Shown piece after piece: positions 1 to 19,480 of a stretch of 24,377 bases of DNA. A program made the translations under genes and the position numbers. The first letter of the stretch is position 1; each line of letters opens with the position of its first letter. Where the stretch lies: NCBI GenBank assembly GCA_964487485.1, contig CAZAQQ010000003.1:1-24377 (forward strand), given 5' to 3'. The DNA is from an uncultured Candidatus Bathyarchaeia archaeon. GTDB lineage: Archaea; Thermoproteota; Bathyarchaeia; 40CM-2-53-6; CAZAQQ01. The notes under the pieces were generated by a model that was not told the origin of the DNA, made no database searches, and saw nothing but the letters and a program-made list of their open reading frames with translations.

Positions 1-179
1 TTAAGAACCATGGTTAAGGCAGCTGGAAGACAAATTGGCTCTGAGCCTTGAGAGATGAAGGGAACATTCAAAATCTTCTTGGGTGACCCCTCGGCAACCT
101 CGAAAAATGTTGTCGAGCCAATCAAGGCAAAGACTAGGAGGGAAGACAGCAATACCTTTCCTAACCTATGCCTTTTCAA
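1..179 (-). CDS. 5'-partial gene (runs off the window) for a secreted C39-like cysteine peptidase domain protein
   Basis: Manual translation from TTG at 179 (GGAG upstream): MKRHRLGKVLLSSLLVFALIGSTTFFEVAEGSPKKILNVPFISQGSEPICLPAALTMVL. Basic plus hydrophobic signal peptide, then the VP-x-x-x-Q-x5-C-x-P-A-x-x-x-M-V-L pattern typical of C39-like peptidases. Not in the ORF track (59 codons in window). Confidence 0.7.
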   Translation of the reverse strand, partial: MKRHRLGKVLLSSLLVFALIGSTTFFEVAEGSPKKILNVPFISQGSEPICLPAALTMVL

Positions 180-290
180 ACTTATCTCCGTTCCGGTCTC
201 GGGCAAAGATTAGCTCCGAGAGCACAATCTCGAAATATAGGTATGAAGAGACGCAGCATATATGATTGCTTCAGAATGCAGAGGGGATGT

Positions 291-635
291 TCACGGGAGA
301 TATTTCTTGACTGTAATAGAAACTGCGTGAAGGATGCAGCCAAAAGCACGGTGATTGGCTTTCCGCCCTTTCGTGAAATCAATCCGGAGCGGCTAACTCG
401 CACCTTTCTCGCGTAAGTGCTGAACTAGGGCTTGGCCATACTTCGCGTTAAACTGCATAAAACGTTCAAGGTCTAACAGCCCCATCCATAAGCTTAGGAA
501 AATAGCTTTGTTTCGCAATGAGGCGCCTTGAATAATGTTCCGGATTTTCTCAACGTCCAACTTACCTAACGTCGGTTCTTTTGTGGCGTTGGGCTTGAAG
601 TCGTCTCTCGGCAATTCTACGGGTTCAACAATCAA
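291..635 (-). pseudogene. Probable tyrosine recombinase/integrase remnant (middle part only) with an internal amber stop
   Basis: VELPRDDFKP...KLDVEKIRNIIQGASLRNKAIFLSLWMGLLD resembles the linker and first box of archaeal integrases. After TAG at 393-395 the frame continues PLRIDFTKGRKANHRAF to TGA at 291. No N-terminal domain and no HxxR/Tyr catalytic C-terminus seen. Confidence 0.45.
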
Positions 636-660
636 ACTCTAAGAGAAACGATTTGAACCC
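621..660. repeat. Inverted repeat/hairpin GGGTTCAA...TTGAACCC
   Basis: 8-bp perfect arms at 621-628 and 653-660, extendable through ATC/GAT with a 2-nt bulge. Confidence 0.7.
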
Positions 661-751
661 GAAGATCTAAGAATGGGAGGTCGGAGCAAGTTGCAAATTG
701 GTGGAAGAACCCCATATGCGAAAGGAATCTATGCAGTGGACGGCCCTCCCT

Positions 752-773
752 TGTAGTTACAGCTGTAATTACA
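752..773. repeat. 22-bp near-perfect palindrome TGTAGTTACAGCTGTAATTACA
   Basis: Self-complementary except for one G/T pair. Confidence 0.85.
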
Positions 774-991
774 CCCCCCGGTACTAGGTATGTAGGCGCC
801 CCCTCATGTGCACGACTGTGTACACATCCGCCTCTGTTTCTCGCAGGCGGAATCCCATGTCTTAATAGGTAAGATGCTGAACATCTCAGGTCATGATTCC
901 GAGATACTCTTTTCAGAGCCTTTTGGGTTCGCGGCACCTGTGGACGCTTGACGCTTTAACATCATGAAATAACTAGCTTGTAGCCCTTAGC

Positions 992-1005
992 TCAAAAGCT
1001 TTTGA
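992..1005. repeat. 14-bp perfect palindrome TCAAAAGCTTTTGA
   Basis: Identical to its own reverse complement. Confidence 0.8.
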
Positions 1006-1059
1006 CAACGAATCTAACTAGGCCAAAACGGAGCTAGAAAAAAGGGGGAAAGGTTGAGT

Positions 1060-1419
1060 TCACATTGTAGCTGGGCTGAAAACATCGTAAAGCAAAGTAT
1101 CTTCTTCAAAGCGCACTTTATGCTTCGTATTCTTGGGTACCCTGATGATCATGCCCTTGCCAACGTCAAACTCGCCGATGCCGTCTACCCACATTTTGCC
1201 TCTGCCTGTCAACGGATAGAGTATGTCGTCTTGCTCCTTGTGGACATGCTCAGGCACCTCAAAGCCTTTCTTAGCCCTGACTAACATGCAGGTTACGTCT
1301 GCTCCATGATCTTTCTTCGATAGCAAAACCTTGATTTCCACACCTTTCGCTATGGGGTGAGGATTCCACGCCACATCATCTTCCTTGGTAACAACCTTCA
1401 TCCCTATCCCTTCTCTCAT
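1060..1419 (-). CDS. Cupin domain protein (metal-binding beta-barrel)
   Basis: Motif 1 GFEVPEHVHKEQDDILYPLTG (HxH plus acidic residue) and motif 2 GMIIRVPKNTKHKV; 119 aa; T-rich tract after the stop on the minus strand. Confidence 0.9.
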   Translation of the reverse strand: MREGIGMKVVTKEDDVAWNPHPIAKGVEIKVLLSKKDHGADVTCMLVRAKKGFEVPEHVHKEQDDILYPLTGRGKMWVDGIGEFDVGKGMIIRVPKNTKHKVRFEEDTLLYDVFSPATM

Positions 1420-1446
1420 ATGGCTGAAACAAATCTATGTTCTAAC

Positions 1447-1454
1447 TTTTAATA
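1447..1454 (-). promoter_or_regulatory. Putative TATA box for the cupin gene
   Basis: TATTAAAA on the minus strand about 28-35 nt upstream of ATG 1419, consistent with a nearly leaderless archaeal transcript. Confidence 0.4.
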
Positions 1455-1472
1455 TTACCGTCCATGGTTCCC

Positions 1473-1492
1473 AAAAAAGGGGAGATAGCCCC
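1473..1492 (-). terminator. Putative terminator downstream of the acyl-CoA ligase gene
   Basis: Minus strand GGGG-CTATCT-CCCC-TTTTTT: short GC stem followed by a U6 tract, about 45 nt after the stop at 1537. Confidence 0.6.
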
Positions 1493-1536
1493 AACACATG
1501 TGTCGAACATTCGCACGTTTAGGTTTGTCAAGCGAG

Positions 1537-2889
1537 TTAATGCTTGCGTTTGTCTAGGAGCCGCCAGACGCGGGTTGCTTTCACTCTCTTCTCCGGTGAA
1601 GTCTTCTCTGCGAGGCCGCCGAAGGGATAAAGCTTAACGTCTACGCTGAATCCAACTCCAGCGCGCAGACCCTCCTCCAACCTTGCCTTTAGGTCTTCCA
1701 CGCTTTTTGTTTTGGCATCAATATACTCAACATGCAATGTACAGACATCAACGCCGCCTGGATTGTCCACTTCAATTAGATACTCGCTGCCTAGTTCTGG
1801 GAACTTGCCCATGGTTGCTTCAAAGGCTGATGGGAAAGACATGATGCCTTTTACCTTGAACATATCGTCTGCTCTGCCTTTTATCGGGGCTATCCTTCGG
1901 AGGGTTCTACCGCATGCGCATGGTTCCTCAATAATGTAGGTTAAGTCCTCTGTATTGTACCTAATCACGGGCATTGCTTCTTTGAATAGGGAGGTAACAA
2001 CCAAGACTCCTTCTTCGCCCGGCCTAAGGGGCTCTTTTGTATCCCTATCCAATATCTCAAATATGTAGCCGTCTTCATTGATGTGCATGCCGTACTCGGG
2101 GCAAACGAATGTTGGAGACCCTATCTCCACTGTGCCCCAGTTATTGTAGGTTTTGCAGCCGAACTTATCTTCTATCCTCTTCCTCATTGGGTCTGGAAGC
2201 GGCTCCGCGGTGTGGGTAGTGATACGAATCTTGAGATCTTTTCTAGGATCAAGACCCATCTTCTCAGCTTGATCCCCGATGTACAGCGCGTAGGATGGCG
2301 TGCATGCAAGAACCGTCGAACCCCAATCCTTCGCAAGCTCAACCTGTCTAATAGTTGGCGTCACAGCTCCACTGCCTGCCGGTACGACCATGGCTCCTAG
2401 CTTCATGGCGCCTTCGCTGAAAGTGAAGCCGGGGATGAAAAGCGAGTATGAGAATGCTACCTGAACTATATCTTTTGACCTAACTCCCTGTATGTATAGC
2501 CTTCTTGCCTGGAGATTGGCTATAACTTGCCAATCATACCATGTGTGGAGAATAGGTTTCGGTTTTCCCGTTGTCCCTGTTGTGGATTGTATTCTAACGA
2601 AGGGAAGATCTCCGAAATCTCCGAAGGGCGGTCGCGCTTGGTATCCTTTCTGCAAGCCAAGCTTGTCGAACCAAGGTAGCTTAGATACGTCTTCAGCTGT
2701 TTTTACATCTTCGGGCCTGACACCTGCTGCTTCCCACAGTTTTCTGTAGTATGGTATTCGATCCCACGCTTTCTCGACCTGCGCTCTAAGCCTCCTGTCT
2801 TGAATCTCCTTAATGGTCTTCCGAGAAGCTTTCTCAAGCTTCTCAAAGGCTGGCCCGTACGGGAAATCTATATCCCATGGTTGAGACAA
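1537..2889 (-). CDS. paaK: Phenylacetate-CoA ligase family (PaaK-like) AMP-forming acyl-CoA ligase
   Basis: 450 aa; STTGTTGKPK P-loop, ACTPSYAL, TAEP, YNNWGTVE, IRYNTEDL and IKGRADDMFKVKG motifs of the PaaK family. The symbol is family-level; the substrate is not established. Confidence 0.9.
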   Translation of the reverse strand: MSQPWDIDFPYGPAFEKLEKASRKTIKEIQDRRLRAQVEKAWDRIPYYRKLWEAAGVRPEDVKTAEDVSKLPWFDKLGLQKGYQARPPFGDFGDLPFVRIQSTTGTTGKPKPILHTWYDWQVIANLQARRLYIQGVRSKDIVQVAFSYSLFIPGFTFSEGAMKLGAMVVPAGSGAVTPTIRQVELAKDWGSTVLACTPSYALYIGDQAEKMGLDPRKDLKIRITTHTAEPLPDPMRKRIEDKFGCKTYNNWGTVEIGSPTFVCPEYGMHINEDGYIFEILDRDTKEPLRPGEEGVLVVTSLFKEAMPVIRYNTEDLTYIIEEPCACGRTLRRIAPIKGRADDMFKVKGIMSFPSAFEATMGKFPELGSEYLIEVDNPGGVDVCTLHVEYIDAKTKSVEDLKARLEEGLRAGVGFSVDVKLYPFGGLAEKTSPEKRVKATRVWRLLDKRKH

Positions 2890-3001
2890 TTCTGATCGCC
2901 GTTAACTTTCTCATCAGTGGCACATTTATTAGACTATCCGTTAAGATTTGTAACCCACCTCCCTAAGGACAAGGCAGTCATTCGAAAGACTATGATACTA
3001 A

Positions 3002-3295
3002 ATGTTCCACGCGCTCTATCTTGACTGGCACCAGGTAGGCCCTAGTGGCCAGTTGAAAAAAGCTAATTTTGACTCTAGAAACATAAGGCTAATTCATGAT
3101 AGGGATTTAGGATGGTGTTTTTTTCGAGGAGTTGAAATCCTCAACGCATGGACTAAAGCTGGTTTTCTTAAGGAAAGTGGCTTTTTGAGCAAGAAGTATC
3201 AGCTAACCGAAAACGCAGCGAGACTGCTGTCGAAACACAGAGAGGAGTTGCCCAAAAACTTAAATTTCCTGCGAACTAACAAGCCGACAAATTAG
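3002..3295 (+). CDS. Hypothetical protein, possible winged-helix fragment
   Basis: 97-aa ORF directly upstream of the CoA-transferase genes; ILNAWTKAGFLKESGFLSKKYQLTENAARLL resembles the helix-wing end of wHTH regulators, but the N-terminal half is unconvincing. Confidence 0.35.
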   Translation: MFHALYLDWHQVGPSGQLKKANFDSRNIRLIHDRDLGWCFFRGVEILNAWTKAGFLKESGFLSKKYQLTENAARLLSKHREELPKNLNFLRTNKPTN

Positions 3296-3307
3296 GGTGC
3301 TTAAAAT

Positions 3308-4261
3308 TTGGTGCTTTATACCAGTGAGGATAAGCTCATGCCGCTGAGCGAAGCGATCAAGAAATATGTGAATGATGGAGATAAGGTCTGCTTCGGCGGA
3401 GCCTTGATCCTCAGGGAACCTATCGCTGCAATATATGAATTGATCAGGCAGAAGAAGAGGAACTTGCATATTATCGGAACCGCGCATGGCTTTGATGTAG
3501 ATCTGGCTTGTGGCGGGGGGATCGTAGGCACGGAAGAGCATACCTACGTGGCCTACGAGTTCGTTTACCGTGGGGGCTGCCCAAACTATAGAAGAGCAGT
3601 TGAACAAGGTAAAATTGAGGAGAAAGAGAACTGCTGCTACTCTGTCATCGCGGGGCTAAGAGCACAATCTTATGGGCAAACCTTCTATCCTGTAGACTTC
3701 CTCCATGGGACAGAAGACATCAAGTATCATCCGGAATACAAGGAGATTACTTGCCCCTATACAGGCAGAAAACTCATAGCAGTCCCACCTATTAAACCCG
3801 ATGTGGCGATTCTTCATGTTTACAAGGCTGATAAGCGCGGCAACGGCGCGTTGGGAGCGCCTCTTGTCGCCGACGTACTCATGATGAGAGCTGCTAAGAG
3901 GACTATATTGACGGCGGAAGAAATCGAACCTACAAGCTGGTTCACTGAAAGACAGGCCGCTCTAATTCCCTACTTCCACACCGCAGCCGTGAGCCATGCG
4001 CCCTTCGGAGCTCACCCAACTGCTTGCTACCTCTACTACACATACGATAAGGAATTCCTCAATGAATATCTAGAGTATGCGCGTGAGGGAGATGAAAGTA
4101 TGGCGAAATGGCTTGACAAGTACGTTTACGGCGTTTCCAGCCACGATGAGTACTTGAAGAAAGTTGGAGAGGAAAGGTTGAAGCAACTACGAGACTGGAG
4201 AAAGATGAGGGAAGAAGCAGAAAACCTGAGGAAGAAACTGAAGGAGGAATGGGTGATCTAG
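3308..4261 (+). CDS. Family I CoA-transferase alpha subunit (GctA/IpdA-like)
   Basis: MPLSEAIKKYVNDGDKVCFGG, KPDVAILHVYKADKRGN, AAKRTILTAEEI and APFGAHPTAC are typical of glutaconate CoA-transferase A-type subunits. Confidence 0.9.
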   Translation: MVLYTSEDKLMPLSEAIKKYVNDGDKVCFGGALILREPIAAIYELIRQKKRNLHIIGTAHGFDVDLACGGGIVGTEEHTYVAYEFVYRGGCPNYRRAVEQGKIEEKENCCYSVIAGLRAQSYGQTFYPVDFLHGTEDIKYHPEYKEITCPYTGRKLIAVPPIKPDVAILHVYKADKRGNGALGAPLVADVLMMRAAKRTILTAEEIEPTSWFTERQAALIPYFHTAAVSHAPFGAHPTACYLYYTYDKEFLNEYLEYAREGDESMAKWLDKYVYGVSSHDEYLKKVGEERLKQLRDWRKMREEAENLRKKLKEEWVI

Positions 4262-5161
4262 ATGCCGAAGATCGTTGACTATAGTATAGATGAACTTATG
4301 GCCGTCTGTCTTGCTCGATGCATATCCGATGGCGACATGGTTTTTCACGGTGTAGCGTCACCTTTGCCTATGACTGCCCTTTATCTAGCGAAGAAAACTC
4401 ATGCGCCCCATATGATTTATCTCGCAGGAGTTGGTGGCGGACTCGACCCTACGCCACCCTTTCTCCCAGAATCGACAAATGATATTTGGCTGCAATGGGG
4501 ATCAGTGTACGCCCTCACGATAGACAGAGTATTCGACTACTTCGCAACGGGTGACTGCACTGTCATGTTCTTCAGCGGTGGACAAATAGACAAGTACGGA
4601 AGCACCAACAACACTTTGTACGGGAAAGATTGGAGAAGGCCCAAGACAAAGTTCCCAGGAGGCGCAGGAGCCTGCAATCTTCACTCCCTCACACCGAAAG
4701 TTGTTGCGTGGACGACTAGGCATAAGGTGTTCGCCCATCCTAAGACAGGTGAGAAGCTTTACACATTGGTTGATAAGGTTGACTTCGTCACCTCTGGTGG
4801 GTACATTCTTCCAGACCCGAAGGATCCGGCGAGGAAGAGGATGATAACAAGGGAGGAAGCGGGATGTAGACCGGGGACAGGACCCTACAAATGCGTAACT
4901 GACCTAGGTGTTTTCGGGTACGATGAGAAGACGAAGATAATGAAACTCGAGTCTGTACATCCAGATGTTACCGTCAAGGATATTCTTGAAAACACGGAGT
5001 TCAAGCCCGTAATTCCAGATCAGAGCAATGTGCCAACCACGAAACCTCCAGCAAAAGAGGAAGTATTGTTGCTAAGGACTGAAATAGACATATACAGAAT
5101 GCGCGTGCTGGAATTCCGCGGCGGAGCTAAGGAATGCGACTCTCGAAGATACAAATTCTAA
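4262..5161 (+). CDS. Family I CoA-transferase beta subunit (GctB/IpdB-like), canonical catalytic Glu apparently absent
   Basis: DELMAVCLAR, FFSGGQIDKYGSTN, FPGGAGA, VDFVTSGG, VTDLGVF and LESVHPDVT motifs. GGTGA ribosome-binding site overlaps the end of the alpha gene. IYLAG occupies the position of the usual xxESG motif. Confidence 0.9.
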   Translation: MPKIVDYSIDELMAVCLARCISDGDMVFHGVASPLPMTALYLAKKTHAPHMIYLAGVGGGLDPTPPFLPESTNDIWLQWGSVYALTIDRVFDYFATGDCTVMFFSGGQIDKYGSTNNTLYGKDWRRPKTKFPGGAGACNLHSLTPKVVAWTTRHKVFAHPKTGEKLYTLVDKVDFVTSGGYILPDPKDPARKRMITREEAGCRPGTGPYKCVTDLGVFGYDEKTKIMKLESVHPDVTVKDILENTEFKPVIPDQSNVPTTKPPAKEEVLLLRTEIDIYRMRVLEFRGGAKECDSRRYKF

Positions 5162-5235
5162 TGCTGGGACTGCCTTTCTGGGGTAACGCGCACTAAAACA
5201 GCCTTGGTCTATCAATCAAAGCTTCTTTCTATCAA

Positions 5236-5625
5236 CTAATTCCGCGTTCGGTGTTGCTCAGCATAAGGGCCATGCTGATTTTCCGTTACTACACCTGTTA
5301 CGAGGTCGATTGCGAACAATATGTCTTCTCTAGGCAGCATGCTTGATAGTGTCGCAAGAACTTCTCTAAGCAAGTCCTTTGGCACAAATTCCGGCGGCTC
5401 CATAGCCAGTCTCAGCAACTGAACGGCTTTTCGTTGTGCCGGGAAATTTAGTCTAGACCGCGCTAGCTCCTCCAACGTTACGCCCAGAATCACCGACTCT
5501 CTTTCGTAGAGATAGAGGAGCACATCTGCGATTTCTTCAGAGGAGACTGACTCAACTTTCTTAAGAGCCAGCAAGAGTTTCAGTCGCCTCTTTCGACGCC
5601 TTTCAAGCCCAGAATAATTGGTCAC
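5236..5625 (-). CDS. Hypothetical helical protein
   Basis: GGAGG 7 nt upstream of GTG 5625 gives a ~129-aa ORF (MTNYSGLERRRKRRLKLLLALKK...); protein-like composition; no family recognised. Confidence 0.55.
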   Translation of the reverse strand: MTNYSGLERRRKRRLKLLLALKKVESVSSEEIADVLLYLYERESVILGVTLEELARSRLNFPAQRKAVQLLRLAMEPPEFVPKDLLREVLATLSSMLPREDILFAIDLVTGVVTENQHGPYAEQHRTRN

Positions 5626-5744
5626 CACTGCGCCTCCTAATTCCTCCCTGTTATGAATGTGAATGGCAATCATGTGCATTTATGAAAGTAGCATCGTTCT
5701 AGCTAGCATAAAGGTCACATTCTTCATCACAACTCCACTTTGCG

Positions 5745-6032
5745 CTAGGCAAACCTATCGCCGAAAACTTTGTAATCTTTCTCCAAAAAGTTAGATAGTT
5801 GTCTAGCTAAAATCTTTGTTGAAGACTTCGAGGCCGAAGTTCCTAGCATACTAAACTCATAATCGCACCTGGGGCACCGAACTCTAGGGCATCGAAGAAC
5901 AGACTGTTGGCAACCAACGCAGGCTACGGCTCTAGAGTAAAGGATTGAAAACCTAAATCCGCAGTTGGGACACTGCACAAGGTTCGTGACTTTCTTTGTT
6001 CTTCTTATTTCTTCGATTTCCCAAGGTTCCAA
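5745..6032 (-). CDS. Small Cys-rich (7 Cys) zinc-ribbon or Fe-S-like protein
   Basis: CPNC-x13-CVGC-x6-C-x4-CPRC. The start is moved to TTG 6032 because the track ORF (to 6203) overlaps the corrinoid gene on the other strand. Confidence 0.75.
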   Translation of the reverse strand: MEPWEIEEIRRTKKVTNLVQCPNCGFRFSILYSRAVACVGCQQSVLRCPRVRCPRCDYEFSMLGTSASKSSTKILARQLSNFLEKDYKVFGDRFA

Positions 6033-6099
6033 AACGGAAGCCAGCTCTGGAGCAAACTCTAATATATCTAGTAGGTTAAAGCTAAATCCGGCGATTATT

Positions 6100-6738
6100 A
6101 TGTCTTCTGAAAAGGAAATTCTTGAAAGGCTGAAAGCATCTGTGGCCGCAGGCGAGGAGGAAACTGCGGAGAGATTGGCTAAGGAAGCGCTCAGCAAGAT
6201 CAAGCCAACAAAAATCTTGGAAGCCGCGTCAGCGGGGATGGCAGTTATGGCGGAAAAGTACTCGCGTAACGAAGTATTTCTGCCTGAGGCTACTGTTACT
6301 ACAGCCGCTTTCTACAAGGCGTTTGAAGTCGTACAGCCTGCGATGAAGGAGGCTGCGCCGCCAAAGCTCGGTAAAGTAGTTATTGGAAGCGGCTTTGGGG
6401 ATGTGCATGATGTTGGAAAGAACTTGGTTAAAGTCATGCTAGAAGCAGCAGGGTTTGAAATCTATGATTTAGGACGTAATGTGACAGCTGAACAATTCCT
6501 AAACAAGGCGATGGAAATCAAGGCGGATATAGTAGCCATATCAGCCTTATACACGCCTACTGTCGTTGACATAAGGAGGTTTGTTAAGCTGCTGAATGAG
6601 AAAGGTGTCAAGGGCAAAATCAAAGTTATGATAGGCGGCGGCTCTACGTCGCCAGCGATTGCTGAAAGCCTAGGCATAACCTACGGAAAAGACTTGCATG
6701 ACGCAGTTTTGAAGGCCAAAGCCTTGGTGGGTAGGTGA
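6100..6738 (+). CDS. Methyltransferase cognate corrinoid (B12-binding) protein
   Basis: Four-helix cap followed by the DxHxxG motif (GDVHDVGKNLV), LEAAGFEIYDLGRNV, SALYTPT and IGGG. Real start ATG 6100 (212 aa); the track's N-terminal 45 aa overlap the opposite-strand gene. Confidence 0.93.
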   Translation: MSSEKEILERLKASVAAGEEETAERLAKEALSKIKPTKILEAASAGMAVMAEKYSRNEVFLPEATVTTAAFYKAFEVVQPAMKEAAPPKLGKVVIGSGFGDVHDVGKNLVKVMLEAAGFEIYDLGRNVTAEQFLNKAMEIKADIVAISALYTPTVVDIRRFVKLLNEKGVKGKIKVMIGGGSTSPAIAESLGITYGKDLHDAVLKAKALVGR

Positions 6739-6744
6739 GGGAGC

Positions 6745-7818
6745 ATGGCAAGTAAGGAGCTTTCTTCTTTCGACAGGATTGGGATGGCGGCAAGAGGGGA
6801 AGAACCGGATCGCGTGCCTATGGGTTGGCTTGGACACTTTGAGCAGGGAATTGCCCTGCCTAATGTGAAAGTGTTTGAGGTTGTGACTGACAAGTCAGGT
6901 CGAAGGCTCTTTCAAGGAATAAAGGCTGTTTTTGATCGTTACAACCCAGATGCAATCACTGTGTTCACTTACACAATCGTGGAAGCTGTAGCTATGGGAA
7001 CAAAGCCCAAGTATTATCCGGATATTCCGCCAGGTCCGTTTGAATATGTGGTGAAGGAGCCGAGGGATCTTGATTTGCTTAAGATTCCGGATCCTAGGTT
7101 CGATGGAGATTTGCCCTGCATATACAACGCCATAAGGCAGGTTGTGAAGGAGTATGGGGGCAGAGTACCTATCGCATCGAATACGACGGGGCCATGCGCA
7201 GTCGCGGCAAGGATCAGAGGCCTTTGGGAGTTTTGCTACGATATTATGAAGAGGCCTTGGTTTGCACATGACTTAATGGAGCATGCAACTCAAGCTTGCA
7301 TCAACATTATCAGCCACTACATACCCCTAGGCCTCACAGGAATAGGTTGGGGAGCGGGCTCTGAGACAACCATAAGCGCAGACCAATTCAGGAAGTTCGT
7401 GTTGCCCTATGACAGGAGATATGTTAGGGCAGCTAGAAAAATGGGTGTTTACAGCTTTACTAGGCATGTGTGCTCCGGCCCAAGCGCGCCCTACGTTGTC
7501 GATGCCTACACCGACATAGCGAGAGACGGGGCCTACACCATTTGGGGCCTTTTCGAGTCTCCTGAGGTTATGGCTAAGAAAAAAGAGCAGTTTCCAAAGC
7601 CAATCGTAACAGGAGGAGGCCCGAACACATCGCTCGTACAACTGGGCAAGCCTGCAGAAGTAGTAAACGAGGTAAAAAGATGGATCAAGACAGTGGCTCC
7701 TGGCGGGCGATACCTGTTCATAGGTGACTGCGGAATCCCACCTGCTGCAACACTTGAAAACGTAGACGCCTACGTAAAAACAGCGAAGGAAGCTGGAAAA
7801 TATCCGATAAAAATCTAG
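6745..7818 (+). CDS. UroD-fold cobalamin-dependent methyltransferase (MtaA/CmuA family, Zn-thiol type)
   Basis: EEPDRVP start, VEAVAMG, TTGP, H241-V-C243 and C329 (GDCGIPP...ENV) form the HxC...C zinc site; 6 nt downstream of the corrinoid gene. Confidence 0.88.
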   Translation: MASKELSSFDRIGMAARGEEPDRVPMGWLGHFEQGIALPNVKVFEVVTDKSGRRLFQGIKAVFDRYNPDAITVFTYTIVEAVAMGTKPKYYPDIPPGPFEYVVKEPRDLDLLKIPDPRFDGDLPCIYNAIRQVVKEYGGRVPIASNTTGPCAVAARIRGLWEFCYDIMKRPWFAHDLMEHATQACINIISHYIPLGLTGIGWGAGSETTISADQFRKFVLPYDRRYVRAARKMGVYSFTRHVCSGPSAPYVVDAYTDIARDGAYTIWGLFESPEVMAKKKEQFPKPIVTGGGPNTSLVQLGKPAEVVNEVKRWIKTVAPGGRYLFIGDCGIPPAATLENVDAYVKTAKEAGKYPIKI

Positions 7819-7944
7819 TGCGTTACCATACTATCTTTTTTTGGAAATTATCTTCCATTCTGCGAAATCATTAATCCTAGACCCAAAAGCTAATATGCGC
7901 CTACGGTAGGTGCTGGGTTCTCCAAGTGGTTGGAGGTATATTGT

Positions 7945-8443
7945 GTGGCGCGGGAAGAAATTTTGAAGAGAGCTTATGAGCTGGGTTACAAATACCAGAG
8001 AGACAATAGGAATTGTGCGCAGTCCACCGTAGCCGCTGTGCAAGACGCTTTGAACATGAGGGACGATAACGCTTTCAGAGCTGCCAGTGGCCTCGCAGGC
8101 GGATCTGCCTTCATGGGTGTTGGGAATTGCGGAGCCTATTCCGGAGGAGTAATGATCATCAGCTCTAGGTACGGTCGAGAACGTAAGGATTTCAGCGATA
8201 TCAAAGTACCGTCGCTCTCTGGAAGTGGCTAAGAAACTCTACGAGAAGTTCAAGCAGGAATACGATAGTTGCATTTGCCATGACATTCAACGGAAGGTTT
8301 TCGGCAGGTCTTTCAACCTATGGGATAGCCATGACCTTGAGGAGTTTACGAAGGCGGGAGGGTTCTCTGAGAAATGTCCAATCGTTGTTGGAAAGGCTGC
8401 TGCTTGGGTCGCTGAAATAATTTTAGACACTGAGGAGAAATAG
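7945..8443 (+). pseudogene. C_GCAxxG_C_C family putative redox protein, split by a frameshift near 8200-8206
   Basis: GGAGG at 7932, GTG 7945. Frame 1 has NCAQS and GNCGAYSGG up to DFSDIK; frame 2 continues KYRRSLEVAKKLYEKF...CICHDI...KCPIVVG to TAG 8443. Together they make one full-length family member. Confidence 0.8.
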
Positions 8444-8535
8444 CTTCTATCTCCAAGCGTCCATATGATGATTTGGCGGCTGGCTTGGGGGACATCAGCC
8501 TCCAACAGTTTCGAAGAACAAACCGTGAGCGGAGC

Positions 8536-8549
8536 AAGCCGAGAGGCTT
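8536..8549. terminator. Small GNRA-loop hairpin between convergent genes
   Basis: AAGCC-GAGA-GGCTT between the stop at 8443 (+) and the stop at 8568 (-). Confidence 0.3.
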
Positions 8550-8567
8550 CAGGAGTGGTGTTAGCGA

Positions 8568-8879
8568 CTAGGATTTTGTGGAAAGCTTCTGCCTTATTTC
8601 TCGTACCTCAGCCTCTAACACAAATACTTTCTGCGCCAAGTCAAACCGCTTCCCAAGCTCCTCGACTTTTAGATCGACTGCCTTAACATCCTTGCTTAAC
8701 GAATCGAACCTAGAGTCGAAAAGCTCAACAGCACTCTCAAGTTTTGAGTCGAAAAGCTTAGTCATACTGTCAAACTTCACATCGAAGAGCTTAACGACGC
8801 TTTGCAGCTCCTCCTTGACAATTTCTCTTACTTCAGGCGCGGTAAGCCTTTTGATAACTTCTTTTGCAGTCTTCGCCAT
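8568..8879 (-). CDS. Small coiled-coil protein with three 11-residue repeats
   Basis: KLFDVKFDSMT / KLFDSKLESAV / ELFDSRFDSLS; 33-bp periodicity in the DNA (GAGTCGAAAAGCT at 8713 and 8746, variant at 8779); C-terminal VLEAEVREIRQKL. Confidence 0.75.
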   Translation of the reverse strand: MAKTAKEVIKRLTAPEVREIVKEELQSVVKLFDVKFDSMTKLFDSKLESAVELFDSRFDSLSKDVKAVDLKVEELGKRFDLAQKVFVLEAEVREIRQKLSTKS

Positions 8880-8928
8880 TGTCCTCGATATGTTAAGGTG
8901 AAGTCTCCTCTTTAAAAGTTACTTCAGG

Positions 8929-9090
8929 CTAAGCCACGGCAGTAACTCTAGCTCCTCCTTCATTAACTTCATCTAGGCTAATGTCTGCTGGCTCGGCTTG
9001 ATCTTTCGTGACTGGCGCAGTTGTGTATAGCTTTTGGCCAGCTGCCAAATATTGGATGGTAAGGCATTGCGCTTTTTCGCCAGAGGCCAT
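8929..9090 (-). pseudogene. Possible degenerate UPF0175-like antitoxin remnant
   Basis: Manual translation MASGEKAQCLTIQYLAAGQKLYTTAPVTKDQAEPADISLDEV... loosely resembles the LY-x4-VT-x3-AE-x-A-x-ISL pattern of UPF0175; an adjacent frame gives KLMKEELELLPWL. Confidence 0.2.
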
Positions 9091-9129
9091 TCATCAAGGA
9101 ATGCGGTAGTATCACCTGTCACAGCGTCT

Positions 9130-9279
9130 AACGGAAGGTTTTCGGCAGGTCTTTCAACCTATGGGATAGCCATGACCTTGAGGAGTTTACGAAAGCGGGA
9201 GGATTCTCTGACAGGTGTCCAACCGTCGTTGCAAGCCTCCGCTTAGACTAATGAAATACTCTTAGACACCAAAGAAACA
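9130..9279 (+). repeat. Decayed second copy of the C_GCAxxG_C_C gene 3' end
   Basis: Translates RKVFGRSFNLWDSHDLEEFTKAGGFSDRCPTVVA, then a 2-nt deletion, TGG->TAG, and NEILLDTKET. Confidence 0.9.
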
Positions 9280-9293
9280 TGTTTCATTTTTTT

Positions 9294-9932
9294 CTAAGAT
9301 AGTTTCTTGGCTATTGTCGTCAGATGTTTTCCCAAATGTTTCGCCATTTTCAGCTCATTAGCCGATGGCATTCGTTCGTCCATCGGCCCCGAGATGGTTG
9401 AGGCGCCGTATGGCGAACCGCCACTTATTTCTTCTAGTGTCATCTGTTCCGTAAATGAATAGGGCAGACCGACTAGAACACAACCGTGGTGCAAAAGCGG
9501 GATCATGGTTGTGATGATAGTGGTTTCTTGTCCCCCATGCTGAGTGGCCGTACAGGTGAAGACTGCTGCTGGTTTGCCGATAAGGGTGCCCTGCATCCAA
9601 TCGCCTGATGTCTGATCCCAAAAGTTCTTCATCTGAGCTGACATGTTACCGAAGCGGGTGGGGGTTCCTACAATAACTCCGTGAATCCCTTTGAGATCCT
9701 TCTTGGGATCAGCTGTCGGAATATGCCTCATCAATTCTTTCGTCTTTTTCATATTTTCATCCCACTGTTCTTGTGGAATAAGCTCGGCGACCTGCCGGAG
9801 GACTGGTTCACCACCTGCCTCTCGAACTCCATCAGCCATGGCTTCGGCCATTCCAAAGATCTGACCATGCCTTGAGTAGAAGAGAATCAGAATTCTTGGT
9901 CTAGACGAACTCAAATTCCACTCACTCTTCAC
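9294..9932 (-). CDS. wrbA: NAD(P)H:quinone oxidoreductase, type IV (WrbA flavodoxin-like)
   Basis: ILFYSRHG, VGTPTRFGNMSAQMKNFWD, TATQHGGQETT and GGSPYGAST are WrbA signatures. Confidence 0.95.
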   Translation of the reverse strand: MKSEWNLSSSRPRILILFYSRHGQIFGMAEAMADGVREAGGEPVLRQVAELIPQEQWDENMKKTKELMRHIPTADPKKDLKGIHGVIVGTPTRFGNMSAQMKNFWDQTSGDWMQGTLIGKPAAVFTCTATQHGGQETTIITTMIPLLHHGCVLVGLPYSFTEQMTLEEISGGSPYGASTISGPMDERMPSANELKMAKHLGKHLTTIAKKLS

Positions 9933-10072: not shown

Positions 10073-11833
10073 CTACCCGTGAAGAGCGCGTCTAACCTCT
10101 TCCCACTTTTTCTTTTGAGTAGCGAGCTTACATATCTGAACAGCGTTTCCCGGGTCTTTGCCATATACGAGGAGGCTTGCCGTTTCGGCGAAGGCCTTGT
10201 CCAAGGCACCTCCACCAACTCCAAATACAATGTCAACTCCCTCTTCCTTAAGTTTCTTAGCCGTTGCCACAAAGGCTGGCCTAGTAGTCGTCATCAGTGC
10301 AGAGCCAAGAACTGCTATGGGCTTGTACTTCTTAATCGCCTCGGCGACGGTTTCGGGAGGTACAGATTTTCCCAAGTCAATTACCTCGAAGCCGCTGGCG
10401 GAGACTATTGCTTTAACAATGTTTTTTCCTATGTCATGTACGTCGCCGTCAGCGCAGTGCACTAATATAGTGCCCAGCTTTTTCACAGCGGCCAGTTCTT
10501 CCTTGCAGACTGCTAGTCCAGCTTGCATAGCGGAATTAGCTAGTAGGATTTCAGGAACGTAGGCTAATCCCTCATTGTAAAGTTTACCCGCAGCTTGTAC
10601 CCCTGGCAGGAGACCTAGGTTCACGATGTCCACGCCTTTAGAGCCTTGTTTGAGAGCCTTCTCACAGAGCTGCCTAGTCTTGGTTTCATCTCCTCTAAGC
10701 ACAGCTTCAGAGATAGACCCGTAGGGTTCATCTTTGGGCATAATATCCTTTACTAACTGAAGAGGTTCTACGGCCCTAGCTTTGGGCGCCTCGGGCTTAG
10801 CTTCCAAGCCTACGGGTGCTCTTTCCTCAAGCTTGAACTTCTCAGCCACCTCTAAGAGCATCCTAATATTTTCCAGCGGAGTTCTAGGCGCTATTGTGCA
10901 TCCAGACGATAGGATGTCTATGCCTGCGCGCAAGGCTTTGAGAGATTCTCTTTCCACATCTGCTATCGAACCCTGGAGAAGAACTGAGACTGGCGCGATG
11001 TTTCCAACGAGCGATATCTTGTTTCCCACTACCTGCCTAGCATAGGCCACATCTACCTTTTCCTCGAATGAAAAACAATCCACGTCAGTTTCCGGGATAT
11101 ATTTCATGTGGCCGCTGGTATTTCCGCAGATATGGAGTACGCAGGGAACATCGATCTTGCTGAAGACTTTTTTGTGGGCTGGAGCTACAAGATCTCGGTA
11201 TGTGTCAGCGCTTATCAAATCGCCTGACGAAGTGGGATCGGAAATAGTGACTATGTCTACCCCTGACCTAGTGGCTGCGGATGCGAATTCCGTAGAAACG
11301 TAAGCCAGCTTATCCAGCGCTTCCTCCACTTTCTCCGGGTTTGTCTTCACCCAAGAGACAAACCTGTCTACTCCAAATACATGACCAGCAATTGTGAAAG
11401 GACCCGTAACTTTCACGGTAAGCGGGATCTTGTCTGAGACCTTTTCCCTCAGGATTTCAATGGCTTCCAAGGCTACGGGTATGCGTCCTTTTTCCACAAT
11501 CTTTTCCGGAATCTTGAGGTTATCTACGTCTTTGAATGCTGGCCCAAGCACTGAGGGAGTCCTATCCACACGTCCCTTATCTATTGGGCAGCCCAATGCT
11601 TCAGCTTCGACGCTAAGGCAAAAGGGTAGCGTCGTAGTTGGCAAGCCCGTTAACTCGTAGGTGGCCGCGGCAAGTCTAGCCATCTTCTCAGGATCCCAGT
11701 GGGCGTCGGGCCAGTAAGTCTTAGAAGCTTCCATGGCGTGAACTGTGGTAGCAACAACAGGGAGGTAAGCAGGAACCCTGTCTACCCTCCCGCCCAGGAG
11801 AGCTGAAAGGATTCTTCTTCTAGTTGTCAGCAA
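10073..11833 (-). CDS. Fused MtaA/CmuA-type methyltransferase (N-terminal) and MtaC-like corrinoid protein (C-terminal)
   Basis: Residues 1-333: LPFCLSVEAEALGC, GPFTIAGH, H234-I-C236, C312 (SSGCTIAPRTPLENI). Pro/Ala/Glu-rich linker. Residues ~365-586: cap helices, HCADGDVHDIGKNIV, GSALMTTT, GGGA. One uninterrupted 586-aa ORF. Confidence 0.92.
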   Translation of the reverse strand: MLTTRRRILSALLGGRVDRVPAYLPVVATTVHAMEASKTYWPDAHWDPEKMARLAAATYELTGLPTTTLPFCLSVEAEALGCPIDKGRVDRTPSVLGPAFKDVDNLKIPEKIVEKGRIPVALEAIEILREKVSDKIPLTVKVTGPFTIAGHVFGVDRFVSWVKTNPEKVEEALDKLAYVSTEFASAATRSGVDIVTISDPTSSGDLISADTYRDLVAPAHKKVFSKIDVPCVLHICGNTSGHMKYIPETDVDCFSFEEKVDVAYARQVVGNKISLVGNIAPVSVLLQGSIADVERESLKALRAGIDILSSGCTIAPRTPLENIRMLLEVAEKFKLEERAPVGLEAKPEAPKARAVEPLQLVKDIMPKDEPYGSISEAVLRGDETKTRQLCEKALKQGSKGVDIVNLGLLPGVQAAGKLYNEGLAYVPEILLANSAMQAGLAVCKEELAAVKKLGTILVHCADGDVHDIGKNIVKAIVSASGFEVIDLGKSVPPETVAEAIKKYKPIAVLGSALMTTTRPAFVATAKKLKEEGVDIVFGVGGGALDKAFAETASLLVYGKDPGNAVQICKLATQKKKWEEVRRALHG

Positions 11834-17389: not shown

Positions 17390-17812
17390 ATGTCGCATGT
17401 GTATCAAGTGAAGGCGAAGTGGCTGGAGGATGTGAAGGGAAGACTTGAGGCTGGCAAGAACGCTTTTGATTTTTCCGTTCCACTGGATTTCGGCGGTCCA
17501 GAGGGCTATTTCTCGCCAGAAGAGCTTTTCGCAGCTTCTGTTGTAACCTGTCTATGCACCACATTTTGGAACACACTCAAGAAAATGAGGGTGAAACTCA
17601 TGGAATGTGAAGTTGAGGGCAACACAAGTCTACAGCCAGACCCAGAAGGCTTTCACTTCACAGATGTAGTTGTGAAATTGAAAGCAAAGGTCGAGGATAG
17701 CAAGATGGTTGAACAGGCCAAGAAGGCGTGGGAGAAGGCTGAGAAGAGATGCTTCGTGTCGAGAGCCCTGAAAGGAAACGTAGGTGTCAAGGTGGAAGCT
17801 AGCATATCATGA
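17390..17812 (+). CDS. osmC: OsmC family protein (peroxiredoxin-like)
   Basis: FGGPEGYFSPEELFAASVVTCLCTTF and AEKRCFVSRAL carry the two conserved Cys of the OsmC/Ohr fold. Confidence 0.9.
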   Translation: MSHVYQVKAKWLEDVKGRLEAGKNAFDFSVPLDFGGPEGYFSPEELFAASVVTCLCTTFWNTLKKMRVKLMECEVEGNTSLQPDPEGFHFTDVVVKLKAKVEDSKMVEQAKKAWEKAEKRCFVSRALKGNVGVKVEASIS

Positions 17813-18182
17813 ATAGGCAATGGGCCAACAAAGTTTCGTTCCTTGTGTGAAATAGATATCGCTCAAACGGTGTCTGGATCCGCTTTAGCTTTAGCAGGAC
17901 CTGATGCTCTTGACGAATTTTGGTACGTCCGGGAGCATGTAGACTCGACGCTGTGAAGTGAAAAAATCAAGAATTCTTTCTCGACTTAGCTAACTAGACC
18001 TCAAACTGCTTCAAGCCTGAGCTAGAGTCATTCTCAACGCGGCATACTGACCATGAAGAAGAAATTGTTAAGAGCACAAAACGTTTTCATGTCCAAAAGA
18101 TAATGTTTTTCGGTTTAAATAGGCTAGTCAACACTGTATCATCTCTTGAGAGAAGACCTAACTCGGTGCAGGTGAAGGTAAC

Positions 18183-18974
18183 GTGGACATAGTTAAGGTT
18201 CTGAGTTTAGCCATCGAATCCGCGGCAAAGGCTGGGAGAATAGAGCCCTCGGATGAAGTGAGGGTGGCGGCTTTGAGGTGGGAGATCTATGCGAGCCTAC
18301 AAAACCTACTTGACTCGCTTGCGATGGTGGTGGCTGACCTCGGCTTGAGGAAGCCCAGCTCGTACAGCGAGCTAGGTTCTATTCTATTTGAGCGTGGGGT
18401 ATTGGATGCGGAGGACGTGAAGCTTGTCAAGCAGGCGGTTGCAACTAGGAACGTTATGGCTCATGCCTACCGGGCAGTGGAAGTCGATGAACTCAGAAGT
18501 TTGAAGCAGACCGTTCTGCCGAAGGTGCAGGAGATCGCCCGGAAGCTTGTAGGCTACGTTAAGGACGCTGGGCTTGACCCTGAGGTGGTTTGTCCAAGTG
18601 GCCTAGCTGAGGTTTTTGGAAGAAGTGGGGTTCAACTCGCTTACCTTTTCGGCAGCAGAGCTAGAGACGCCTTTAGGGAGGACAGCGACTACGACTATGC
18701 AATCTTGTTCGGACGGCATGTTGCTGTGGAGGATGAGGTTGAGCTGGTGGTGGAACTAGCTGACGCGCTAGGAGTTTCCGTCGATATGGTTAATGTTGTG
18801 GCGTTGGATCGAGCGGACCTTGAGTTGGCGCATAGGGTCTTGAAAGAGGGTAAGCTTGCTTATTCAAGAGATGAAAGTTTCAGAAGGACTTGGGAAAGGG
18901 ACATATTCCTGCAGGCGTTGGACAGCAGGGATCTCTATGATGTCTACGTGAGCAGAGTGGGAAAGAGAAGTTGA
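18183..18974 (+). CDS. Fused HepT-like (DUF86/HEPN) RNase toxin and MNT nucleotidyltransferase antitoxin
   Basis: R89-N-V-M-A-H94-A-Y96 (RX4HXY) in the N-terminal half; G157-S158-x10-D169-x-D171 (GSX10DXD) in the C-terminal half; one 263-aa ORF; GGTGA site upstream. Confidence 0.88.
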   Translation: MDIVKVLSLAIESAAKAGRIEPSDEVRVAALRWEIYASLQNLLDSLAMVVADLGLRKPSSYSELGSILFERGVLDAEDVKLVKQAVATRNVMAHAYRAVEVDELRSLKQTVLPKVQEIARKLVGYVKDAGLDPEVVCPSGLAEVFGRSGVQLAYLFGSRARDAFREDSDYDYAILFGRHVAVEDEVELVVELADALGVSVDMVNVVALDRADLELAHRVLKEGKLAYSRDESFRRTWERDIFLQALDSRDLYDVYVSRVGKRS

Positions 18975-18995
18975 ACCTTTGGAAACTTTAGAAAT

Positions 18996-19069
18996 GGCTG
19001 AGAAGAGATGTTTCGTTTCGAGGGCCCTTGGGAAACGTAGGCGTTAAGGTAGAAGCCGACATCTTGTGA
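18996..19069 (+). repeat. Decayed second copy of the OsmC 3' end
   Basis: Translates AEKRCFVSRAL, 2-nt deletion, GNVGVKVEADIL-stop, versus AEKRCFVSRALKGNVGVKVEASIS-stop. Confidence 0.9.
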
Positions 19070-19159
19070 AAGTTGGGCATGCAAATAGGGCTTTCACTGA
19101 CGGAAACTAAATGTTGCCTGAATACTGTTTGCTCGCAGCAGCGTAAGTTTCACTGAGGC

Positions 19160-19480
19160 TTGATGTTCTTGACGAAAATCTTGGTTCGCCCAGGAGCATG
19201 TGGATTTGATGCTGTAATAGAAGCAACAAGGTCAAATAATGCTGTGAAGCTTAAAATAGAGTCGAAATGCGAAAACATCAAAGAGCTCGCCAAAGACCTC
19301 CAAGAAGTTTCAATAGAAGATTTCTATGGCAGTGGAAGCATCGCGAAGAATAAGATATACACGGTTGCTACGAACTGTATTCGCCATCCAGCCTGCCCAG
19401 TTCCCTGCGCAATCGCGAAAGCTGTTGAAGCCGAACTAGGTCTAGCATTGAAAAAAAATGTGAGCATCGAATTCCTGTGA
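19160..19480 (+). CDS. Small Cys-rich conserved protein (resembles the DUF6951 family)
   Basis: PGACGF, IESKC, HPACPVPCAIAKAVEAELGLALKKNVSIEF match a conserved family of anaerobes as I recall it; the family name needs an HMM check. The start may be TTG 19169. Confidence 0.75.
   Translation: MMFLTKILVRPGACGFDAVIEATRSNNAVKLKIESKCENIKELAKDLQEVSIEDFYGSGSIAKNKIYTVATNCIRHPACPVPCAIAKAVEAELGLALKKNVSIEFL

Follow-up and report, generated by a model that had tools for sequence, protein, structure and literature searches.

How did the 3' end of one gene come to stand on both sides of a small insert in the genome of an uncultured bathyarchaeon? The locus lies in a window of 24,377 nt, which is the whole stretch of DNA analyzed here. 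The window is the entire contig C3 of a metagenome-assembled genome (MAG) that contains 1.53 Mb in 208 contigs and is 82% complete. The nearest reference genomes used for comparison belong to the same order, and none of them is of the same family or genus. The locus is surrounded by genes for corrinoid methyltransferases and for transport, which form a block. Within this block, a redox-protein gene (gene A) is followed by an insert and then by a second copy of its own 3' part (copy B). The features are listed below by position in the window.

5965-6738: corrinoid protein.
6745-7818: UroD-fold methyltransferase.
7930-8443, plus strand: gene A, a redox protein of the C_GCAxxG_C_C family, with PF09719 on both halves.
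8249-8441, plus strand: repeat copy A, which covers roughly the final 64 codons of gene A and is its working 3' end.
8289-8352, plus strand: first copy of the perfect 64-nt core.
8444-8567: spacer from gene A to the cargo gene, 54% GC.
8568-8879, minus strand: cargo gene, a coiled-coil ORF of 103 aa that contains three 11-residue repeats.
8880-9089: noncoding remainder of the insert (210 nt).
9090-9280, plus strand: repeat copy B, the decayed remains of the 3' part of a diverged homologue of gene A, corresponding to the last 60 codons of that gene.
9130-9193, plus strand: second copy of the perfect 64-nt core.
9253-9306: hairpin (z = -2.1) and T7 run between copy B and wrbA.
9294-9932, minus strand: wrbA, a WrbA-like FMN reductase/flavodoxin gene (PF03358), convergent with copy B.
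10073-11833, minus strand: MtaA-corrinoid fusion.

The two copies of the gene end form a direct repeat with an offset of 841 nt. Positions 8249 to 8441 align with 9090 to 9280 over 193 columns with 78% identity and one 2-nt gap. The match has an E value of 1e-41 within the region and 6e-37 against the whole 1.53-Mb genome. A preliminary description of this DNA, made from the sequence, had reported 64 identical nucleotides at 8289-8352 and 9130-9193, and this identity is exact. Mismatches number 16 in the 40 nt upstream of the core, 0 in its 64 nt, and 26 in the 89 nt downstream. The flanks of the core are 29 to 40% diverged (60 to 71% identity), and the 10 nt that abut it on the left contain six mismatches. 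With 42 mismatches in the 129 nt of the flanks, the probability that 64 nt in a row would match throughout at this rate is about 1e-11. The common origin of the core is therefore much more recent than that of the flanks, as would be expected of a crossover or an att site, and the mosaic calls for a recent exchange there.

The preliminary description had also called the divergence outside the core conservative. All five of the codon differences that it quoted are present, but both flanks together contain 8 synonymous and 20 nonsynonymous differences. This ratio is close to neutral, and the divergence between the copies is only mildly conservative. Counted by codon position (first/second/third), the differences are 5/6/5 upstream and 5/8/13 downstream, an asymmetry that is not statistically significant at about 43 codons.

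Copy B contains three lesions. Where gene A has CAA, copy B has TAA (9129-9131), and where gene A has TGG, it has TAG (9244-9246). The third lesion is a 2-nt deletion after 9234. The deletion and the TGG-to-TAG change had been described before, and both are present. The same account had copy B beginning abruptly. Instead, weak homology extends 40 nt to the left of 9130 and ends in the TAA. It matches gene A at 24 of these 40 nt, in the frame F-x-x-E-x-x-S-x-x-C-H. The frame before the core reads F-I-K-E-C-G-S-I-T-C-H-S-V-stop in copy B and F-K-Q-E-Y-D-S-C-I-C-H-D-I-Q in gene A.

Copies A and B were aligned with 30 database homologues. In this alignment they are each other's closest relatives. 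They have in common derived states that occur in none of the database homologues (GGFS / WDSHDLEEFTKAGGF-S, and LDT). Copy B also keeps family-consensus residues that copy A has lost (F-I, G-S, and D-x-C-P), and it is therefore no recent copy of the present-day A. It derives from a moderately diverged sister allele.

The 3' context of copy B is compact. With the 2-nt deletion corrected, its frame passes the stop position of the gene and ends at TAA 9295-9297. This codon overlaps the wrbA stop (9294-9296) by two bases. Because of this tight convergent packing, copy B looks resident at this place, which suggests that it is the resident gene end at this position. The closest public records to wrbA are labeled Candidatus Bathyarchaeota, Hadesarchaea, and Sifarchaeum. 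Its orthologues in the order-level genomes show 68 to 77% identity, and none of those genomes has a C_GCAxxG_C_C gene adjacent to wrbA.

Eight contigs from the same population were retrieved from other samples by exact-protein look-up. Their sources are ERZ781361, ERZ781360, ERZ27245483, and ERZ27245621 at ENA and 3300010328, 3300022551, 3300025143, and 3300025144 at JGI. Two of them span both junctions. L044 (ENA ERZ781361) covers window positions 6691 to 9409 with 99.6% identity, and L045 (JGI 3300010328) covers 8320 to 9465 with 99.0% identity. Inside the insert, these two differ from the window only by a 3-nt indel, which keeps the coiled-coil ORF in frame. Six more contigs agree with the window at the left junction. 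The earlier objection that the locus could be a strain chimera is removed by L044 and L045, which cross both junctions and come from other samples.

The contigs also carry population variation. Variants contain dense-SNP patches about 46 to 80 nt long. L067 has 8 SNPs in 8446-8491, within the spacer, and 5 in 6595-6648; in L045, the stretch 9372-9450 has 8 SNPs, all at third positions. At 8836, a position within the coiled-coil ORF, L046 stops following the shared sequence and continues with 58 unrelated open-frame bases to the end of the contig. No source for this 58-nt tail was found in the genome or in viral contigs. The MAG itself holds nine perfect 55-nt repeats at a spacing of exactly 155 nt. 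These look like k=55 artefacts and are unrelated to the 64-nt core.

Gene A is split in the window. A 2-nt CA deletion after 8201 (ATCACAAAG to ATCAAAG, relative to L044 and L070) leaves ORFs of 100 aa (7930-8232) and 72 aa (8225-8443). The two halves of the gene score 50.1 and 30.5 bits against PF09719, for which the Pfam gathering cutoff is 27. The gene is intact, with 166 aa, in L044 and L070. The frameshift, which the preliminary description overlooked, is also present in L046, L047, L048, L067, and L068. Its presence in these five other assemblies makes the deletion a real polymorphism. Gene A is dispensable in most of the population. A protein search with the intact gene retrieved no homologues of 57 to 98% identity, and the best match outside the population was at most 57% identical. 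Among 60 order-level genomes, none of them from the same family or genus, no contig contained two gene-A matches within 17 kb.

The insert encodes the coiled-coil gene that had been placed within the 841-nt offset, and this is borne out as a 103-aa ORF at 8568-8879 on the minus strand. Upstream of it, at 8880-8920 on the minus strand, are a TATA-like CTTTTAAAG and a GAGG motif. The protein has a conserved N-terminal motif, A-K-E-V-x-x-R-L-T-A-P-E-V-R-E-I-V-K-E-E-L, and a conserved C-terminal motif, L-E-A-E-V-R-E. A paralogue with 37% identity is encoded in the same genome (contig C113) beside a PIN/AbrB pair. Homologues occur in 7 of 104 order-level genomes, and several of these again adjoin PIN/AbrB pairs. 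About 28 clusters were matched among 1.84 billion representatives. Searches of Pfam, PHROGs, and PADLOC gave nothing above thresholds, only generic coiled-coil noise, and no relatives were found in viral contigs. The cargo belongs to a rare, unnamed archaeal family. Our guess is that it is a small coiled coil, either structural or associated with the membrane, and that it travels along with toxin-antitoxin islets.

The rest of the insert yielded little. The antitoxin remnant suspected on the opposite strand finds no support: the candidates, small minus-strand ORFs at 8929-9090 and 8973-9122, have no match in Pfam, PHROGs, PADLOC, or the genome itself. A six-frame tblastn search of the insert against its own genome for other gene remnants returned only the coiled-coil paralogue. 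The insert contains no known RNAs or tRNAs. No recombinase domain is present in the ORFs of the islet, and the integrase/tyrosine recombinase domain PF00589 has no match in the 82%-complete MAG. The GC content is 47.1% for the insert and 46.7% for the genome.

We consider the chance somewhat better than even that the resident gene tail was pushed aside when foreign homologous DNA recombined at this site, with the core marking the exchange. The incoming DNA would stem from a related but diverged lineage and would have used its homology to the 3' third of gene A to enter. It would have brought the coiled-coil gene and its own copy of the 3' part of gene A. The exchange would have fallen somewhere in the 64-nt stretch that both copies now share without a mismatch. 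On the left, this would leave the 5' part of the gene, the core, an imported working 3' end, and then the cargo. On the right, it would leave an imported stub, the core, the resident 3' end (copy B), and the resident convergent wrbA. Copy B would have decayed afterwards through the 2-nt deletion and the TAG. The stub upstream of its core would never have been needed and would already have had the TAA. What the sequences show is the repeat, its mosaic structure, the decay of copy B, the resident-looking context of this copy, and the reproducibility of the locus across samples; the foreign origin of the DNA, the direction of the event, and the enzyme involved are our inference.

The core may be an att site or a heteroduplex tract, and the event may have taken one of three forms. 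The first is site-specific integration with an integrase acting in trans, in which case the element would now be a recombinase-less remnant. The second is a Campbell-type single crossover of a small circular DNA. The third is one-sided homology-facilitated recombination. An identical att-like core flanks the insert and overlaps the 3' end of the target gene, as is expected of an integrative element. The locus likewise has two hybrid copies, a zone of identity, and prior divergence on both sides of it, as is expected of a homology-driven insertion. The neutral-looking upstream differences (5/6/5) and the third-position-biased downstream differences (5/8/13) fit an unselected stub and two once-functional ends. 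A single event of this kind would account for the flank asymmetry, the resident context of copy B, and its few disabling changes.

Searches for the products and partners of such an event were made in several collections. An attB-like pattern, the empty-site junction, had no match in metagenome contigs, and an attP-like pattern, the excised junction, had none in viral contigs. A 44-nt core pattern matched only in this population. No donor allele turned up among proteins, metagenome contigs, or viral contigs; in the protein search, the nearest other homologues were at most 57% identical. The preliminary description had looked to related genomes for the empty site; none was found in the nearest ones, which are of the same order only. 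Its proposal of integration with a replacement 3' end, or else homology-facilitated recombination, stands in part. The architecture fits, no tandem full-length paralogues were seen in the 60 order-level genomes, and copy B sits in a resident context, but no empty site, donor, excised junction, or integrase was found. Set against recombination are the small size of the insert (841 nt with a single gene), a GC content equal to that of the genome, and the near-neutral 8:20 codon ratio. The abundance of tandem paralogues in the genome was counted on the same side.

The same design was found 9 kb away, at osmC. This second locus (Islet 2) has the following features.

17390-17812: osmC.
17732-17971, plus strand: left repeat, the working osmC 3' end and a gutted DUF6951 remnant.
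18183-18974, plus strand: cargo, a fused HepT-MNT ORF (PF01934 and PF18765), whose MNT half matches PADLOC PDC-S09.
18991-19230, plus strand: right repeat, the displaced osmC 3' end together with the beginning of the working DUF6951 gene.

The displaced osmC end, which starts at 18991, also contains a 2-nt deletion. The repeats of Islet 2 reach from the end of osmC across the intergenic region into the start of the next gene and are 68.5% identical (E = 9e-25). Between the displaced and the working osmC end there are 9 synonymous and 3 nonsynonymous codon changes, so the displaced end once worked as a gene end in a diverged lineage. This pattern, together with the gutted copy of the downstream gene, is what would be predicted if the crossover partner was a foreign segment, homologous and syntenic with this region. 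The order-level genomes almost entirely lack DUF6951. Further diverged repeat-flanked blocks occur in contigs C27, C60, and C64, all of them lacking a long perfect core. Orthologues of apgM, the gene compared for the C27 islet, reach 57% identity at most. Another Bathyarchaeota MAG contains 83 nt of an orphan wrbA tail, interrupted by an internal stop.

A truncated tandem paralogue would give a similar layout. Two functional, diverged genes would have stood side by side, insertion of the cargo would have cost the downstream copy its 5' two-thirds, and a later short-patch gene conversion would have made 64 nt identical. We regard this as unlikely, though it is the main rival. The genome contains many tandem pairs with 57 to 73% identity. 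The short recombination patches in the population (about 50 to 80 nt) make a 64-nt gene-conversion tract between two old copies plausible as well, and the dense-SNP patches of 46 to 80 nt are similar in size to the short-patch conversion reportedly seen in Sulfolobus by Grogan and colleagues. The resident-looking 3' context of copy B fits a tandem paralogue equally well, and so does the finding that A and B are mutually closest relatives. However, three separate events are required (duplication, insertion with deletion, and conversion), and the same geometry would need a second origin at osmC. No such pair was seen in the 60 order-level genomes. The six mismatches in the 10 nt left of the core would also have offered little homology to start conversion.

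[quoted passage not shown] About 190 nt of the resident gene would have been duplicated, copy B would have decayed neutrally, and the core would have been rehomogenized later. Furuta, Abe and Kobayashi (2010) described cassettes without mobility genes that are flanked by direct repeats of >30 bp overlapping gene 3' ends (PMC2853133), and this is a known route for recombinase-less cassettes. The near-neutral ratio of synonymous to nonsynonymous differences is in its favor. The defense- or selfish-type cargo of those cassettes (PMC2853133) is another likeness, one that holds for Islet 2. However, such repeats begin identical, and the flanks here are 29 to 40% diverged with only three disabling changes in copy B. 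Repeats in the published cases are near-identical target copies, 94 to 98% identical (PMC2853133), whereas the alleles here are diverged, with a mosaic core, and match at 78% overall and 60 to 71% outside the core. Copy B retains family-consensus residues that are missing from A. At Islet 2, the ratio of 9 synonymous to 3 nonsynonymous differences shows divergence accumulated under selection.

An assembly artefact, in which two strains or species were joined chimerically at a shared k-mer, might be suspected in a MAG of 208 contigs with nine 55-nt repeats of k=55 appearance and a variant that diverges at 8836, but we rejected it as having almost no likelihood: L044 and L045, from other samples and other assemblers, cross both junctions, the six further contigs confirm the left one, and a join at a shared k-mer yields one hybrid copy and not two.

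Displacement of the resident tail by recombination with foreign homologous DNA, the reading that we prefer, has counterparts in known systems. Prophage e14 and phage 21 integrate in icd of Escherichia coli, where the element supplies a replacement 3' end and the original end is displaced as the icdC pseudogene. e14 has its own integrase, is able to excise, and brings a replacement end nearly identical to the original. The displacement of the tail is alike in the islet, but here the ends are 29% diverged and there is no recombinase. CIMEs, such as that at fda of Streptococcus thermophilus, are cis-mobilizable, recombinase-less elements flanked by att sites at a gene 3' end, and the integrase of a cognate ICE acts on them. 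The islet resembles them in its small cargo between att-like repeats and in having no integrase of its own; a partner ICE is known for CIMEs only. Homology-facilitated illegitimate recombination has been shown experimentally in transformable Acinetobacter, Streptococcus pneumoniae, and Pseudomonas stutzeri. The islet is like it in having one homologous anchor for foreign DNA and resident DNA truncated at an arbitrary point. It is unlike it in that neither a donor nor an illegitimate junction is identifiable.

Integrated elements of archaea are a further comparison. The att sites of crenarchaeal integrated elements are 29 to 69 bp long (Krupovic et al. 2019, PMC6563490). Of the 68 integrated elements of Thaumarchaeota, 14 occupy the 3'-distal part of protein genes (PMC6563490). 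The islet shares with these elements an archaeal host, direct repeats around foreign DNA at a gene 3' end, and a core, 64 nt, that is within the size range (PMC6563490). They differ in being several kilobases long, in encoding an integrase or casposase, and in having demonstrated empty sites (PMC6563490). The islet has 841 nt and one gene, with no recombinase or empty site found, and its homology extends beyond the core on both sides. It is an ordinary example of a familiar type of insertion scar, here without a recombinase.

To our knowledge, little is known of how accessory genes enter uncultured archaeal genomes such as those of Bathyarchaeia. In this archaeal lineage, small single-gene cassettes might spread recurrently without recombinases, joined to a piece of a host gene end, by homeologous single crossover, and each entry would leave behind a short tract of identity and a displaced resident tail. 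We hold this general form to be doubtful. If it were true, one general process would have produced the two islets of this contig, the blocks in C27, C60, and C64, and the orphan wrbA tail of the other MAG. The cargo under this cassette reading would be of selfish or defense type, namely the HepT-MNT fusion and a coiled-coil family found beside VapBC pairs in relatives. Displaced gene tails serve as dated, directional scars of gene entry, which show where DNA came in and roughly how distant the donor was. The two scars within 11 kb, both recombinase-less and with small selfish-type cargo, hint that this lineage may routinely gain micro-cargo by homology-anchored entry.

A second islet, with the layout of islet 1 (the 841-nt insert behind the C_GCAxxG_C_C gene), lies at window positions 17732-19230. 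Its cargo, a fused HepT-MNT ORF, has the 3' end of osmC on one side and a displaced osmC end on the other. The displaced end carries 9 synonymous and 3 nonsynonymous differences, plus a 2-nt deletion. The left repeat also contains a gutted DUF6951 remnant.

An orphan 83-nt fragment with 83% identity to the 3' end of the window's wrbA was found in another Bathyarchaeota MAG (JAOUPS010000051.1, 2999-3080). It contains an in-frame stop. It lies downstream of an unrelated 514-aa gene, so a related lineage has a displaced gene tail as well. G000, the MAG to which the window belongs, contains three more gene blocks of 3.4-4.7 kb between direct repeats of gene ends (76-80% identity). The blocks encode cobalamin, sugar, and oxidoreductase genes, and a long perfect core was absent from the flanking repeats of all three.

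Repeat pairs flanking gene blocks in G000
C27, 3077-3244 and 6470-6636
C60, 2929-3177 and 7587-7832
C64, 1098-1374 and 5598-5856

Perfect 55-nt direct repeats were also present in G000. Eight contigs (C7, C24, C32, C84, C102, C107, C121, and C129) each contain one at a spacing of exactly 155 nt, and C167 contains one at 1787 nt. Their sequences are unrelated between contigs. These repeats are probably k=55 assembler artifacts.

Homologues of the coiled-coil cargo of islet 1 lie in G000 contig C113 (region 578-1701) and in L053/L054 (region 561-2500). Such homologues repeatedly adjoin pairs of PIN (VapC) and AbrB-type antitoxin genes. In some relatives, the neighbours of the homologue also include another small coiled-coil protein, which has a membrane helix at its C terminus.

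Contigs of the same population were retrieved from other samples. One of these (L046; JGI 3300022551 Ga0212089_10004183) matches window positions 1-8836 at 99.97%. It departs from the window at the conserved EVREIVKEEL motif of the coiled-coil ORF and continues with 58 unrelated bases (L046 8893-8950) in an open frame up to the contig end. This tail may be a structural variant of islet 1 or a contig-end chimera. The population contigs also contain dense SNP patches, with 5-8 SNPs per 46-80 nt in otherwise identical surroundings. The wrbA SNPs in these patches all fall at third codon positions. The patches resemble short stretches acquired by recombination with diverged strains.

Dense SNP patches (window positions)
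6595-6648
8446-8491
9372-9450

The C_GCAxxG_C_C gene is frameshifted in the window by a 2-nt "CA" deletion after position 8201 (within 8195-8232). The deletion is common to the window and five further assemblies, and the gene is unbroken in two (L044 and L070). It is a segregating loss-of-function allele. All four frame-breaking indels in the two islets and this target gene are 2-nt deletions (window positions 8201, 9234, 17770, and about 17915). They may reflect a mutational signature of this lineage.
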